A DNA stretch of 38,458 nt from Escherichia phage vB_EcoM-606R7, in the sequence record ON470580; one strand, 5' to 3'. Position numbers and translations under genes: made by a program. The notes beneath the pieces were generated by a model. It was not told where the DNA came from, did no database searches, and was given only the letters and a program-made list of their open reading frames with translations. How positions within the stretch are numbered: the stretch's first letter is position 1; each line of letters opens with the position of its first letter. Shown one piece after another: positions 8,149 to 32,864 of the stretch.

Positions 8149-8454
8149 CTATGTTCCGGGATGAAATCGATACATCCGCAGTCCGGTATAGAAAAAATCA
8201 GGCACTGCATCCTGCATTTCCCTGTTCTCGTACCAGTAGCCAACCAGTTGCATAAGACGCAGTTTTATCAGAGGTGTTATTACAAGCCCGGTCGTATCCT
8301 GCTCAGAAACAGTTTCATCGTAAAGCGTCCGGTTTAAAAACTTTTCAGCCTCTTCCCTGGCAGCAGCCAGATACATCATAAGAAGAGAATTCTCCTGTTC
8401 ATTGTCATCATCAATCCGGCACTGAACACGAAGCTCTTCCAGAGTGGGCATCAT
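8149..8454 (-). CDS. Head-tail connector protein (gp6-like)
   Basis: 101-aa acidic ORF following the capsid gene. Confidence 0.5.
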   Translation of the reverse strand: MMPTLEELRVQCRIDDDNEQENSLLMMYLAAAREEAEKFLNRTLYDETVSEQDTTGLVITPLIKLRLMQLVGYWYENREMQDAVPDFFYTGLRMYRFHPGT

Positions 8455-16396: not shown

Positions 16397-16456
16397 AGCC
16401 TCACCTCCGCAAATAACGGATGGCGTAGTTTTACACTGAGAAATGAAAGGGATTTG

Positions 16457-16482
16457 AAAAGAAAAACCCGCAAAAGCGGGCG
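16457..16482 (-). terminator. Terminator-like hairpin upstream of the holin gene
   Basis: Minus-strand RNA reads CGCCCGC-UUUU-GCGGG followed by UUUUU. Confidence 0.45.
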
Positions 16483-16688
16483 AAACGATATATACAGAAA
16501 GGAAAGCACTCTATCCAACAAACCAACCACAGTTAATTGGAATAAAAGCAGAGTGCTTATGAATGATCGCCTGCCCGAAGGTTAGTATTTCTGCACAGCA
16601 ATTTTGCAAAAAAAGGCGATCATTCATAACTTAAACGTCTTTCAGTCACTCCGGGATTTCCCATCATCGCAGACTGAAAGACTCTAAC

Positions 16689-16763
<75 letters not shown>

Positions 16764-16766
16764 ATA

Positions 16767-16842
<76 letters not shown>

Positions 16843-16844
16843 AC

Positions 16845-16921
16845 TGGACCGCCACCGGGGACTCGAACCTCGCACACTCAACTTAAAGGGTTGACGCTCT
16901 TTCCTGATGAGCTAGTGGCGG
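16845..16921 (-). tRNA. tRNA gene with an atypical anticodon loop (CCUUUAA; best guess anticodon UUU, Lys)
   Basis: Sits in the array with 2-nt spacers. Acceptor CCGCCAC/GTGGCGG (C1-G72), TAGCTCA D-arm start, T-loop TTCGAGT, CCA encoded; C at position 33 and one T-stem mismatch. Confidence 0.5.
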
Positions 16922-16922
16922 T

Positions 16923-16998
16923 TGGTGGCCCTTGCTGGATTTGAACCAGCGACCTGGCGATTATGAGTCGCTCGCTCTCACCACTGAGCTAAAGGGCC
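16923..16998 (-). tRNA. tRNA-Ile2-like (gene anticodon CAT; ileX/ileZ type, alternatively elongator Met)
   Basis: GGCCCTTTAGCTCAGTGGT...CGACTCATAATCGCC...GGTTCAAATCCAGCAAGGGCCACCA resembles recalled E. coli ileX. Confidence 0.75.
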
Positions 16999-17116
16999 GG
17001 GCGCAGGATAATAATGTTACGAAATCAATGTTGCAAGCATTCAAAAATCACCTGGTTAAAAATCACCCTTATCTCCTCCACCAGCGCATTCACCATGCCT
17101 ATCCGAGATAAGTGGC

Positions 17117-17155
17117 ACAAAAAACCCGCTTGTGGGCGGGTTTTGTTTGCTTTTG
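17117..17155 (-). terminator. Bidirectional intrinsic terminator between Q and the tRNA array (tR'-like)
   Basis: Hairpin CCCGC-TTGTGG-GCGGG (17125-17140) flanked by A6 on one side and a T-rich tract on the other. Confidence 0.6.
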
Positions 17156-17195
17156 CCATCACGTACAAAATCGGCAAAATATCAGATTTGCATGA

Positions 17196-17224
17196 AATAT
17201 ATGCCTTTCAATCTACTTTTGCAA
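17196..17224 (-). promoter_or_regulatory. Candidate late promoter (pR'-like): -35 TTGCAA, 17-bp spacer, -10 TATATT
   Basis: Hexamers read directly on the minus strand at the 3' end of Q, about 40 nt upstream of the terminator. Confidence 0.5.
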
Positions 17225-20354: not shown

Positions 20355-20510
20355 TTACTCCTCAGGTTCGTAAGCTGTGAAGACAGCGACCTCCGTCTGG
20401 CCGGTTCGGATTCGTACCTCGCAGAGGTCTTTCCTCGTTACCAGTGCCGTCACTATGACGGTTAAACAGATGACGATCAGGGCGATTAGCATCGCCTTTT
20501 GCTGCTTCAT
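20355..20510 (-). CDS. hok: Hok/Gef-family type I toxin (HokD/RelF-like)
   Basis: 51-aa sequence MKQQKAMLIALIVICLTVIVTALVTRKDLCEVRIRTGQTEVAVFTAYEPEE matches recalled HokD; long untranslated leader upstream (20511-20800). Confidence 0.85.
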   Translation of the reverse strand: MKQQKAMLIALIVICLTVIVTALVTRKDLCEVRIRTGQTEVAVFTAYEPEE

Positions 20511-20800
20511 AGCCTGCTTCTCCTTGCCTTTCGGCACGTAAGAGGCTAACCTAGATTTGCCGTTCATAGATTGAGCCTCAGATTAATGTTAAGCGTCTTG
20601 CAGGACGCGTAATGTTAACTGGGGCTTTTCTCTACCTGCCGTTGGTGTTCATGCCCGAGGCAGATAGCCTCAAGCACCCGCAGCAATTCTACTTAACTCT
20701 CCTTTTCCCGCAAACCGTTTTTACCCCCAGCGGCAAATCGAATACACCACCAGCGCCACCGCCATCGCAATTCCTACCGTTGTGAATGCTTCAGGCCAAG

Positions 20801-22828: not shown

Positions 22829-23083
22829 TTACATCATCTGCCAGTCTGGTTTCTCTTTTCNNNNNNNNNNNNNNNNNNNNNNNNNNNNNNNNNNNNNNNN
22901 NNNNNNNNNNNNNNNNNNNNCTCTTTCCGATGGCTCATAAAGAAAATTAACCTGATTACGTGGGTCATCCTCTTTTACCGGAAATAAAACGATATTGCTT
23001 AACTCATCTTCTGGTTTTATTTCCATGCTCTTCTCCTTTGATGTGAATGCCAGCGGTAATTGAAGCCTGATAGCTAATTTCAT
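22829..23083 (-). CDS. Hypothetical protein (interrupted by an N-run)
   Basis: ORF spans the N-run; only its N-terminal part is reliable. Confidence 0.3.
   Translation of the reverse strand: MKLAIRLQLPLAFTSKEKSMEIKPEDELSNIVLFPVKEDDPRNQVNFLYEPSERXXXXXXXXXXXXXXXXXXXXXKEKPDWQMM
22861..22920. other. Assembly gap (60 N)
   Basis: Run of n characters. Confidence 0.99.
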
Positions 23084-27230: not shown

Positions 27231-27288
27231 TTTCTGGTGACGTTTGGCGGTATCAGTTTTACTCCGTGACTGCTCTGCCGCCATTTTT
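27231..27288 (+). ncRNA. dicF: DicF-like small RNA (cell-division inhibitor)
   Basis: TTTCTGGTGACGTTTGGCGGTATCAGTTTTACTCCGTGACTGCTCTGCCGCC followed by ATTTTT matches the DicF sequence as I recall it; GGCGG...CCGCC terminator stem; sits between ydfC and dicB. Confidence 0.6.
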
Positions 27289-27924: not shown

Positions 27925-30368
27925 ATGAGCACTGATAAAGAAGAATTTGCACTATATTGCGAAGCAAAAAATGACAAAGTAAGAAAACGCCTGGGAATTA
28001 AAGGTGGTTTTTACTGGACTACAGCAAAAAAATTATCTGTTGCAATCTCCCGCTGCATTACCGCAATGGATGACAACGATTATGATGAAGACGACTTTAA
28101 AAAACCCGTCCGCGTCAATTTGCCCGTTGTTGACGACCTTCCGCCAGAAGGCGTGTTTGATACTGAATTCTGCAACCGCTATGAAAAAGGCGGGAAAGAT
28201 GGCATCACAATGACATTTATCGGCCCTTCCCCCTCTGTTCAGGACAAACCAGCCAGCACTGACAATACCAACATCAACGGCGAAGACATGACTGAGATTG
28301 AGGAGAGCATGCTTCTGCCTGTCTCCGGTCAGGAACTGCCCATTCGTTGGCTTGCTCAACACGGCAGCGAAAAACCAGTAACGCACGTTTCACGCGACGA
28401 ACTCCAGGCATTACACATTGCACGGGCTGAAGAACTACCGGCTGTTACTGCCCTGGCTATTTCGCATAAAACCAGTCTGCTCGACTCGCTGGAGATTCGC
28501 GACCTCCACAAACTGGTTCGTGACACTGACAAAGTTTTCCCTAATCCTGGTAATTCAGACCTGGGACTAATAACTGCTTTTTTCGAAGCATACCTGGACG
28601 CTGACTACACTGATCGGGGTCTGCTGACAAAAGAGTGGATGAAAGGAAATCGTGTTTCACGCATCACCCGCACGGCTTCCGGTGCTAATGCTGGCGGTGG
28701 GAACAAAACCGATCGCAATCCGAATTTAGTACACACCCTCGACACACTGGATGTGGAGATTGCAGCAGCCACACTTCCGATGGATTTTAATATTTATGAA
28801 ATTCCGGGCAGCGTTTATCGTCGCGCANNNNNNNNNNAGTCCTGAAAAAAGAAAGTCCGTTCAAAGAATGGTCCGCAGCACTTCGTGCAACCCCGGGTAT
28901 TCTGGACTATTCCCGCGCCGCTATTTTTGCACTTATCCGAAGTGCACACCCTGAATTTTATCACTACCCGGGACGCCTTCAGGGGTATATCAACGCCTAT
29001 TTGACGGAAACTGATCACGAGAACCCCAGCAAGGAAACTCTCACAGCTGCCCGGCATACGCCGGAAAAAGATATCCTGGAAGAAATTAACCGCGAGGTGG
29101 TTACTGAGCGTGAAACAGAAGAAGAAAAACCACAACCATCTGACGCAATGGCAGGTGAACAGGCAACAACTGAAACAATGGAACCGGATACAACTGAACA
29201 TTGCCAGAACGCGCAGTCGCTGGATGCTCAGTCGCAGGTGAGTTCCGCTAACCAAGTAAAAGTCACCGCTGACGAAGTAAACAAAATTATGCAGGCAGCC
29301 AATATCAGCCAGCCTGACGCCGATAAGTTACTTGCTGTATCGCGTGGTGAATTTGTTGAGGGGATTAGCGACCCTAATGATCCGAAATGGGTCAAGGGGA
29401 TCCAGACTCGCGATTCTGTGAACCAGAACCAGCATGAATCGGAACGGAACTACCAAAAAGCGGAACAAAACAGCCCAAATGCGTTACAAAACGAGCCAGA
29501 AACGAAACAATCCGAACCAGTAGCGCAACAGGAACCGGAAAAAGTCTGCACCGCCTGCGGTCAGAGCGGTGGCGGCAACTGCCCTGATTGTGGCGCGGTG
29601 ATGGGCGACGCAACATACCAGGAAACATTCGATGAAGAGAATCAAGTTGAAGTTCAGGAAAATGATCCGGAGGAAATGGAAGGCGCTGAACATCCACACA
29701 AGGAGAACCCTGGCGGCAATCAGCATCACGCCAGCGATAATAAAACTGGCGAGGCGACAGATCCCTTAATTAAGGTGAATGGTCATCATAAGCTCACATC
29801 CACCAGCAGAGCGGGGATTCATCTGATGATCGACCTTGAAACCATGGGAAAAAATCCCGATGCCCCGATTATCTCAATAGGCGCAATATTTTTCGATCCA
29901 CAAACCGGAGATATGGGACCGGAATTTAGCAAGACCATCGATCTGGATACTGCTGGCGGAGTCATTGATCGTGACGTCATTAAATGGTGGCTGAAGCAAT
30001 CACGTGAAGCGCAGTCTGCCATTATGACCGATGAAATCCCGTTAGATGATGCACTACTGCAATTGCGGGAATTTATCGACGAAAACTCCGGTGAATTTTT
30101 TGTTCAGGTCTGGGGTAATGGGGCCAACTTCGACAACGTGATTTTACGCCGTTCATACGAACGACAGGGTATCCCCTGCCCGTGGCGCTACTGCAACGAT
30201 CGCGATGTACGCACAATCGTTGAGCTGGGGAAAGCCATAGACTTCGATGCCAGAACTGCTATCCCATTCGAAGGTGAGCGCCATAATGCACTTGATGACG
30301 CTCGTTACCAGGCAAAATACGTTTCAGCTATCTGGCAAAAACTGATCCCGAGTCAGGCTGATTTTTAA
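27925..30368 (+). CDS. Exodeoxyribonuclease VIII-like protein (YdfE-like N-terminal part, DEDDh-type 3'-5' exonuclease C-terminal domain); spans a 10-N gap
   Basis: Reading frame stays open from 28839 to 30368, and the 27925-28827 ORF is open up to the gap, so one roughly 810-aa product is likely. C-terminus carries [15 protein letters not shown] and HNALDDA motifs. Reading frame across the gap is not verifiable. Confidence 0.55.
28828..28837. other. Assembly gap (10 N)
   Basis: Run of n characters. Confidence 0.99.
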
Positions 30369-31707: not shown

Positions 31708-31797
31708 TGGCGGAGAGAGGGGGATTTGAACCCCCGGTGGAGTTGCCCCCACTCCGGTTTTCGAGACCGGTCCGTTCAGCCGCTCCGGCATCTCTCC
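31708..31797 (-). tRNA. serU: tRNA-Ser (anticodon CGA), serU-like; probable prophage attachment target
   Basis: Hand-folded: GGAGAGATGCCGGAGCGGCTGAACGGACCGGTCTCGAAAACCGG... with long variable arm and CCA; 3' end faces the integrase gene. Confidence 0.8.
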
Positions 31798-32788: not shown

Positions 32789-32864
32789 TCCTCTGTAGTT
32801 CAGTCGGTAGAACGGCGGACTGTTAATCCGTATGTCACTGGTTCGAGTCCAGTCAGAGGAGCCA
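32789..32864 (+). tRNA. asnT: tRNA-Asn (anticodon GUU), asnT-like; HPI attachment site
   Basis: TCCTCTGTAGTTCAGTCGGTAGAACGGCGGACTGTTAATCCGTATGTCACTGGTTCGAGTCCAGTCAGAGGAGCCA read directly. Confidence 0.9.

Follow-up and report, generated by a model that had tools for sequence, protein, structure and literature searches.

The trailer of the glyW-cysT-leuZ transfer RNA (tRNA) operon of Escherichia coli, known as 3'ETS(leuZ) for 3' external transcribed spacer, is said to be an Hfq-bound small RNA (sRNA) sponge of about 50 nucleotides (nt), with a single-stranded seed and a terminator. Bacteriophage T4 encodes the stable RNAs RNAC and RNAD ('species 1 and 2') beside its tRNA cluster, with which they are made. 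They are referred to as 'RNAs of yet unknown functions' (PMC9697503). In lambdoid prophages, the site downstream of the promoter pR' is a documented hot spot of morons and sRNAs (PMC4104026; bioRxiv 10.64898/2026.05.13.724894). Here we analysed a stretch of 38,458 nt of Escherichia phage vB_EcoM-606R7 (sequence record ON470580; 'the window' means this whole stretch), in which a block of three hairpins, H1, H2 and H3 ('the element'), lies between a tRNA array and a holin gene. The block is best read as a structured trailer at the 3' end of a tRNA operon that the prophage carries as a self-contained unit, with its own promoter-like motif and predicted terminator.

The element compares with 3'ETS(leuZ) by position, the aspect tested here: it lies directly 3' of the last tRNA of its operon on the same strand, would end at the intrinsic terminator predicted for the operon, and would be left over after excision of the tRNAs. 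It differs in its length of about 215-225 nt, in its three elaborate hairpins and in being prophage-borne, and there is no sequence relationship between the two. The moron-site sRNAs AgvB and AsxR (RF02702 and RF02703), PasD/STnc100 (RF02076), PasA and PasC, and StxS/IsrK occupy the same niche between Q/pR' and the lysis genes and are likewise prophage-borne and terminator-ended (PMC4104026; bioRxiv 10.64898/2026.05.13.724894; PMC7547250), whereas the element is fused to a tRNA array and gave no covariance-model match to any of them at E <= 10. An identity with AgvB or AsxR was rejected on the same ground, as neither model matched in the interval. RNAC and RNAD are likened to the element by layout alone, as stable phage RNAs beside a tRNA cluster, T4 being an unrelated lytic phage. 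GOLLD, ROOL and the hepatitis delta virus (HDV)-like 'theta' ribozymes are also structured non-coding RNAs adjoining prophage tRNA genes; the element is much smaller than GOLLD and ROOL and has no Rfam match. Rfam 15 gave no family match within 16456-16688 at E <= 10, and none in the interval at the gathering threshold in a run over the whole window. The element was equally unmatched in four related loci, and the copy in HK639 gave only a sub-threshold match to istR (E = 0.22). On the other hand, STnc100 (RF02076) was found in HK639 (locus L001, 2765-2970, 52.6 bits), directly downstream of the element's terminator, and in locus L005 (371-563, 71.7 bits), where it replaces H3. The Q-to-holin interval of these two loci thus reads as a string of non-coding RNA genes, with the element in an sRNA cluster. 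We class the element as a prophage moron-site or tRNA-trailer non-coding RNA that matches no Rfam family.

The initial annotation, made from the letters of the window, had noted three inverted repeats between the last tRNA and the holin gene. All three are present and perfect, the coordinates of the 11-bp and 9-bp repeats were exact, and the placement was right, with the tRNA-Gly gene on one side and the holin open reading frame (ORF) on the other, both on the minus strand (Table 1). The longest repeat exists as well, but its size had been misjudged, since it spans 16 bp with 41 nt between the arms rather than 15 bp with a 44-nt loop. The chance level of such repeats was taken from first-order Markov simulations of the window sequence. 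When the arms were required to span at least 11 nt and the loop no more than 60 nt, the 38-kb window contained three perfect inverted repeats, two of them in the block, against a simulation mean of 0.48 for the whole window; with arms of at least 15 nt there is one (I1), against an expectation of 0.0. The only other 11-bp perfect inverted repeat of the window (GGAAATAAAAC / GTTTTATTTCC) lies at 22980-22990 with 23014-23024. Masked runs of N at 1054-1118, 22861-22920 and 28828-28837 inflate naive palindrome counts. The minus-strand RNA from 16690 to 16440 folds at -85.2 kcal/mol, compared with -57.4 +/- 4.2 kcal/mol for dinucleotide shuffles (z = -6.6), and the single hairpins gave folding z scores of -5.6 (H1), -6.2 (H2) and -4.4 (H3).

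The relevant genes all lie on the minus strand, and the hairpins are read in the sense of the tRNAs and the late genes. RNAalifold, applied to 32 distinct phage and prophage variants, recovered all three hairpins with 60 pairs. Paired cells amounted to 98.7%, compared with 94.1 +/- 0.3% in column shuffles and 38-47% when the partners were slid by one to three columns. Compensatory double changes were seen in 11 of the 60 pairs, and a second alignment covering H2-H3 only, collected by anchors that left H1 and the stems unconstrained, contained double changes in 8 of 40 pairs. The pairing is moreover asymmetric between the strands: G.U cells numbered 255 and A.C cells 12, and the stems were paired at 98.7% in the transcribed sense versus 86.0% on the opposite strand. 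Because of the compensatory changes and this asymmetry, the data indicate that the hairpins are under selection as RNA in the tRNA/late-gene sense; the asymmetry also speaks against an antisense RNA. The initial annotation had offered an RNA element for processing or stability of the late transcript as one explanation; the kind of element is supported by the compensation, the G.U/A.C asymmetry and the sense strand, and it may act in processing, in stability or in trans. No ORF is conserved across the element on either strand. A protein-coding explanation was rejected for the 38-residue minus-strand ORF at 16511-16627 and for the 43-residue plus-strand ORF at 16454-16585 (annotated as hypothetical in phage 689R5), neither of which is conserved; single-nucleotide indels in the U run abolish them in common variants.

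Each hairpin has its own anatomy. H1 carries an asymmetric internal loop closed by the pairs G16670.U16648 and C16669-G16649, followed by the bulge G16668 A16667 U16666; beyond the bulge come the tandem pairs G16665.A16650 and A16664.G16651, then U16663.G16652 and GGG/CCC. This agrees with the sequence pattern of a kink-turn (k-turn), with pairs 19-41, 20-40 and 26-37 predicted and the loop GAUGA/GA, in a reading that sets the sequence pattern beside the consensus as generally known and is not a structural test. By the same pattern it resembles a box C/D k-turn, with a Watson-Crick C-stem closing in C-G, a 3-nt bulge GAU, tandem G.A/A.G and a non-canonical stem starting with U.G, and GCGAUGA opposite CGGA here compares with RUGAUGA opposite CUGA in the consensus. 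The G.A/A.G tandem was kept in nine of ten variant H1 copies collected without constraining H1, and locus L145 is off the consensus at two k-turn positions. The outer stem of H1 shows two compensatory pairs and one A-U/G-U pair. In H2, the three-way junction closed by the long stem has one branch of 8 bp (16605-16612/16588-16595) with a near-invariant 9-nt loop, AAAUUGCUG (16596-16604), and a second branch formed by the mini-hairpin CC-UUCG-GG (16574-16581) of the C(UUCG)G type; compensatory double changes were found in five stem pairs. The basal stem of H3 has compensatory changes in three pairs, with at least three paired sequence states. In its upper stem the 5' strand varies, whereas its partner, GG(G/U)UGGUUUGUUGGAU, is rich in G and U and nearly invariant, most of the pairing between them being G.U (alignment A3); this 3' strand belonged to the pattern used for that search. 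The comparison of the window with HK639, which is BLAST-derived and free of patterns, showed that loops and internal loops are better conserved than stems; in the larger sets, the search patterns account in part for how well the loops of H1 and H2 and the GU strand of H3 are conserved.

The hairpins belong to a larger unit. A promoter-like motif of the sigma-70 type (Table 1) precedes the array, and tRNA-Met starts 9 nt after its -10 hexamer. The motif TTGCA(a/g)-17-TAT(t/c)AT with its GC-rich discriminator is kept before tRNA-Met in many loci whose upstream sequence is unrelated, the differing contexts being another Q type, a methylase gene or a divergent gene. Because the motif is conserved in such unrelated contexts, the tRNAs and the trailer are probably expressed independently of Q, under stringent or growth-rate control. 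Breakpoints of BLAST homology to the window cluster at 17000-17040, where the homology begins at the promoter in 38 loci, and at tRNA borders; about 24 loci break at 16506-16520, the 3' edge of H3, and 7 at 16554, the border between H2 and H3. Both of these last are recurrent homology breakpoints, and the 3' edge of H3 is a recurrent recombination boundary. In the ORF next downstream, at least five unrelated N-termini occur: the S21 type in about 80 of 124 copies and at least four others. A terminator-like hairpin follows H3 in most variants listed; its sequence is particular to each clade and differs in the HK639-type clade. As far as the motifs allow, the whole looks like a portable, autonomous moron placed between Q/pR'-tR' and the lysis cassette and made up of a promoter, tRNAs, a structured RNA and a terminator. 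It is the tRNA module, rather than the holin, that the hairpins accompany. That the interval is a place of cargo in lambdoid phages, as the initial annotation had held, was borne out, since it is a known moron/sRNA hot spot (PMC4104026) and relatives carry STnc100 in the next slot.

The element is widespread in one group of hosts. Of 5426 complete E. coli genomes, 517 contain the 291-nt interval with an identity of 90-100%, and the total rose to 536 when an HK639-type query was used in a more distant search. Carrier genomes hold one to three copies (median 1), all chromosomal. It is also present in the phages vB_EcoS-689R5, PhiR47_1 and phi467, and the HK639 copy shares 75% identity over the hairpins only, with a different terminator and different flanks. 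Pattern scans of IMG/VR added about 150 further loci with about 50 distinct variants. Among species-representative genomes, the scan found E. coli and Shigella flexneri only; three matches in other species were rejected as chance, lying in GC-rich coding sequence of unrelated metagenome-assembled genomes. One Salmonella record, filed as a plasmid, carries the element.

Most related loci have the array Met(CAU)-X-Thr(UGU)-Gly(UCC) before the hairpins, with a variable second slot and tRNA-Gly last. In nearly all loci the element starts 6 nt past the CCA of tRNA-Gly(UCC), and the distance from the end of that tRNA to the H1 motif is 15 nt. The coupling of the hairpins to each other is looser. The exact H1 motif accompanies 94 of 124 H2-H3 copies, and about 10 have point variants of it; in the copies without H1, H2-H3 comes directly after the tRNA-Gly CCA (7), after a 38-residue ORF (11) or after other sequence (2). 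In L031, conversely, H1 is followed by a different long branched hairpin. H1, which is tied to the 3' end of tRNA-Gly, and H2-H3 are separable modules. L155, the one locus with the 38-residue ORF that was examined in detail, has H2-H3 between a Q-like gene and the holin. The tRNA-Gly of HK639 is a fragment without its 5' part, and the element still persists there. This persistence beside a dead tRNA-Gly, and that of H2-H3 without H1 or a tRNA, favours a function that resides in the RNA and speaks against its being no more than an aid to tRNA processing. The 38-residue ORF is hydrophobic, reads MGVWM(I/V)ALILIASLIAGVVIYIDVISDFI(I/V)DANFLHLP and ends just before H2-H3 in 11 loci with no tRNA immediately upstream, among them L133, L136, L139, L144, L147, L155 (10858-10974) and L158; it is a candidate small membrane-protein moron.

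How might such a trailer work? We propose that the operon would be transcribed from its own sigma-70 promoter in lysogens, and that Q-modified polymerase would transcribe the same unit from pR' during lytic growth. RNase P and RNase E would excise the tRNAs from the primary transcript, leaving a stable remainder of about 215-225 nt from the nucleotide after CCA to the U-tail, whose 5' end may be shielded by H1 and whose 3' end may be shielded by the terminator hairpin. This RNA may then act in trans as an sRNA or a protein ligand, a proposal which we put first tentatively and would call slightly more doubtful than probable. It would be a stable sRNA of the 3'-external-transcribed-spacer or moron-site type, probably partnered by an RNA chaperone or another protein, and its acting parts would be those that are conserved and single-stranded or weakly paired, namely the k-turn-like loop in H1, the loop AAAUUGCUG in H2 and the GU-rich strand in H3. 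A role in trans is favoured because specific loops are conserved while the stems drift, because H2-H3 is retained after different upstream genes and beside a dead tRNA-Gly, and because neighbouring slots hold bona fide sRNAs (STnc100). Hfq-binding sRNAs usually have a 3' module of a U-rich linker, a terminator hairpin and a U-tail, and the corresponding parts of the element fit this type.

Several results weigh against this proposal. The RNA is long and almost wholly paired, unlike typical Hfq sRNAs with a seed, and 9-mers complementary to the H2 loop occur at chance level in the window, host targets not having been searched. Only the comparison between the window and HK639 is free of loop conservation forced by patterns. 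Most of the double changes trace to a few clade splits (window type versus HK639 type, and sub-clades), so that few independent events are involved, and the count of double-change pairs is not separated from that in shuffles (206 of 500). L133 and L155 show no obvious terminator after H3. H2-H3 stays in the pR'-to-holin interval, which fits a role in cis in the late transcript equally well. Our searches of the literature returned no description of the element. Finally, some prophages tolerate an IS3-family element within H1 or H3, so the hairpin block is dispensable for prophage persistence. The insertions seen (L132, 304-1466; L022, from about 2545; L110) lie inside H1 (strain 19451123) or in the 3' arm of H3.

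The nearest competitor is an element acting in cis on processing, stability or insulation, which we regard as doubtful but still a serious candidate. It could do one or more of three things: separate the tRNA precursor from the downstream sequence; shield the lysis and structural mRNA, by a base-paired 5' end left once the tRNAs are cut out of the Q-antiterminated late transcript, from 5'-end-dependent decay by RNase E; and, together with the terminator, insulate the holin of the lysogen from the constitutive tRNA promoter. In E. coli, 5' hairpins can stabilise mRNAs, and terminators can interfere with tRNA processing. That the element is always in sense and between pR' and the first of the lysis genes, even where no tRNA immediately precedes H2-H3, is consistent with this account, as is the position of H1 only 6 nt past the CCA; the promoter, which is probably strong and of the stable-RNA type and lies about 600 nt upstream of the holin, would moreover make tight termination necessary. 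A protective hairpin or an insulator needs no specific loop, however, while here the loops outlast the stems, which drift and compensate. Neither does a role in cis readily explain that three different hairpins are retained jointly over about 25% divergence, that the module is combined with at least five unrelated downstream N-terminal sequences and with different terminators, or that the element persists by the dead tRNA-Gly fragment in HK639.

Alternatively, the element may be a protein-binding RNA that accompanies the tRNA array as its partner. It might then be a decoy for, or a regulator of, an enzyme directed at tRNAs, for example a host anticodon nuclease or a processing or modification enzyme, with the protein recognising the k-turn-like loop of H1 and the conserved loops of H2 and H3. 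The near-consensus k-turn pattern, with its tandem kept in nine of the ten unselected H1 variants, and the tight physical linkage to tRNA-Gly are in line with it; so is the non-canonical tRNA in slot two (described below), which swaps anticodon loops as might, by analogy, be expected of counter-defence tRNAs. We nevertheless consider this rather improbable, since E. coli is not known to have an L7Ae-type k-turn-binding protein, H1 is absent from 20 of the 124 H2-H3 copies, L145 deviates as described above, and no protein gene co-varies with the element, the upstream and downstream genes differing among loci. A more far-reaching version, in which H1-H2-H3 would be a new class of protein-binding phage RNA serving the tRNA array, for example as a k-turn decoy or regulator that guards or controls the non-canonical tRNAs against host tRNA-targeting defence or processing enzymes, seems to us quite improbable.

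The initial annotation had also proposed that the repeats are a scar of cargo exchange, and in this sense they might be a functionless recombination scar, junction remnant or selfish palindrome of the REP, ERIC or MITE kind. The interval is indeed a classical insertion site of morons (PMC4104026), two of the breakpoint clusters fall on the H2/H3 border and on the 3' edge of H3, and L005 has other sequence and STnc100 replacing H3. The hairpins, however, are internal to a conserved module that is itself the cargo: they lie within the conserved block, whose breakpoints are at 17000-17040 and 16506-16520, rather than on either side of it, in what is largely a conserved, uninterrupted segment, and their stems are under purifying and compensatory selection, with a strand asymmetry that points to selection on RNA. 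The supposed link to junctions is half right, since the two breakpoint clusters at H3 do recur. A recombination scar or an att-type junction was rejected on these grounds, and a dispersed repeat (REP/BIME, ERIC or MITE) because there are one to three copies per genome (median 1) and every locus examined has the same prophage context. We regard the scar as very improbable and already largely refuted, and together with a DNA-level site as essentially excluded. Such a site, a cruciform or an operator-like target of a phage or host DNA-binding protein, would explain the long perfect palindromic arms in double-stranded DNA, and the initial annotation had listed a protein-binding site, but it is barely credible because G.U-type changes are tolerated on one strand only (the 255 G.U against 12 A.C cells and the 86% against 98.7% pairing given above), because the arm sequences shift with pairing kept where an operator would conserve sequence, and because the spacers are long and structured.

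Other identities were considered. HK639 carries the element, and HK022 and HK639 are known for put-type antiterminator RNAs, whose two hairpins modify RNA polymerase in cis and cause read-through of downstream terminators. A terminator follows the element, and read-through from a constitutive promoter into the holin of a lysogen would probably be harmful, which argues against a put-type role. A self-cleaving ribozyme (HDV-like/theta, hammerhead or twister) was rejected, with no Rfam match at E <= 10, no evidence of self-cleavage, and a consensus fold of three independent hairpins without a nested double pseudoknot, as far as a non-exhaustive pseudoknot search can tell. Neither is the element a tRNA relic or an integrative element on the 3' end of tRNA-Gly, as H1-H3 contain no cloverleaf or match to a tRNA model and no integrase lies nearby. 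Nor is it a Pas sRNA. Unlike PasA and PasC, which lie antisense to the late genes (PMC8550237, table S6), the element is in sense, and in a comparison with the published E2348/69 probe sequences rather than the full genes, the PasA, PasC and PasD probes were absent from the window at up to 6 mismatches. The PasB probe gave a single loose match, of a 23-mer with 5 mismatches, which falls in coding sequence at 8413 and not in the element. The prophage PP10 of E2348/69 (L131, 2558-2870) has a pseudogenic tRNA-Gly, then the sRNA candidate 'E2348C_2757.EST5UTR' from RNA interaction by ligation and sequencing (RIL-seq), then a terminator. Its layout is similar, and it was rejected as a relative because on inspection, with no alignment run, its sequence is unlike the element.

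The element shares its niche with the pR' moron-site sRNAs AgvB, AsxR, Pas and StxS, which rewire host regulation in pathogenic E. coli, and it occurs in about 10% of complete E. coli genomes, besides Shigella and the plasmid-filed Salmonella record. It would be an example of a stable-type RNA co-transcribed with phage tRNAs, a kind known from RNAC and RNAD of T4. If the promoter and the terminator are truly its own, lysogens should express it, with possible effects on the physiology of the host, the supply of tRNAs or interactions with phage defence. If the protein-binding or counter-defence account should hold, the moron of promoter, tRNAs, RNA and terminator would amount to a mobile set of counter-defence genes that the prophage expresses. 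With its small size and modular build, the element is easily deleted and hence directly testable.

Table 1. Positions of the repeats, the hairpins and the neighbouring features in the window
Feature	Position	Strand	Remarks
Repeat I1	16557-16572 with 16614-16629		16 bp perfect, 41 nt between arms
Repeat I2	16637-16647 with 16672-16682		11 bp perfect
Repeat I5	16504-16512 with 16550-16558		9 bp perfect
H1	16637-16682	minus	11-bp outer stem 16672-16682/16637-16647, asymmetric internal loop, variable apical tetraloop
H2	16557-16629	minus	16-bp perfect stem closing a three-way junction
H3	16504-16558	minus	9-10-bp basal stem and upper stem
Putative sigma-70-type promoter TTGCAA-17 nt-TATTAT, GC-rich discriminator cctgcgccc	17008-17036	minus	Scan 9/12; predicted activity
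DUF968/YdfU-like gene, RusA, then 231-residue Q antiterminator	Q 17903-17208	minus	
pR'-like promoter and tR'-like terminator	17144-17121	minus	
tRNA-Met/Ile2(CAU)	16923-16998	minus	ARAGORN
tRNA 'Lys'(UUU)	16845-16921	minus	ARAGORN; Rfam tRNA model 44 bits
tRNA-Thr(UGU)	16767-16842	minus	ARAGORN
tRNA-Gly(UCC)	16689-16763	minus	ARAGORN
6-nt A/U-rich spacer GUUAGA, CCA of tRNA-Gly to H1	16683-16688	minus	
U-rich linker	16482-16503	minus	
Predicted intrinsic terminator, GCCCGC-UUUU-GCGGG stem-loop, tail UUUUUCUUUUC	16466-16481	minus	Terminator scan and fold
Linker and terminator together	16456-16503	minus	
71-residue S21-type holin	16396-16181	minus	Followed by YdfR-like ORF, endolysin, Rz/Rz1, HNH, terminase

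With regard to the surroundings, the spacer between tRNA-Gly and H1 is the sole single-stranded stretch between the two. It varies among loci (GUUAGA, GUCAGA, GUUUAA or GUUAAA) and is a candidate entry site for an endonuclease, which may cleave there. The four tRNAs of the array match the Rfam tRNA model at 44-74 bits. Slot two is non-canonical and hypervariable, a shared scaffold, CCGCCACTAGCTCATC...GGTTCGAG..CCGGTGGCGGnCCA, carrying swapped anticodon stem-loops. In the window it is Lys UUU with C33 replacing the universal U33, at the lowest of these scores, and elsewhere it is Arg UCU or Leu CAG, the loci examined including L002, L011, L007, L026, L052, L078 and L108. The HK639-type slot two has shortened loops and is read by ARAGORN as Phe AAA, Leu UAA, 'Stop' UUA or undetermined. 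These slot-two tRNAs may be decoy or nuclease-resistant tRNAs.

Upstream of the array, the region of the short pR'-to-tR' transcript (17119-17199, minus strand) gave sub-threshold IsrK/IsrJ matches of 22.7-24.5 bits in Rfam, and HK639 (2266-2338) an IsrK/IsrJ-type match of 34.6 against a gathering score of 37. The matches fit a putative short terminated pR' RNA of the StxS/IsrK type. Downstream, a 10-bp perfect inverted repeat (16346-16355/16402-16411) pairs the Shine-Dalgarno region of the holin (UGCGGAGGUG) with codons inside the gene, and may be an sdi-like structure controlling the S21-type dual starts. Elsewhere in the window, tRNA-Ser(CGA) (31708-31797, minus strand) and tRNA-Asn(GUU) (32789-32864, plus strand) lie about 15 kb off the array; they may belong to the host and mark where the prophage ends or is attached. 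Moreover, Rfam identified the hok/sok-type antitoxin RNA sok (102 bits, 20505-20679, minus strand) and DicF (73 bits, 27232-27283, plus strand), so that the prophage has at least two further known regulatory RNAs and resembles lambdoid elements of the Qin/Kim type.

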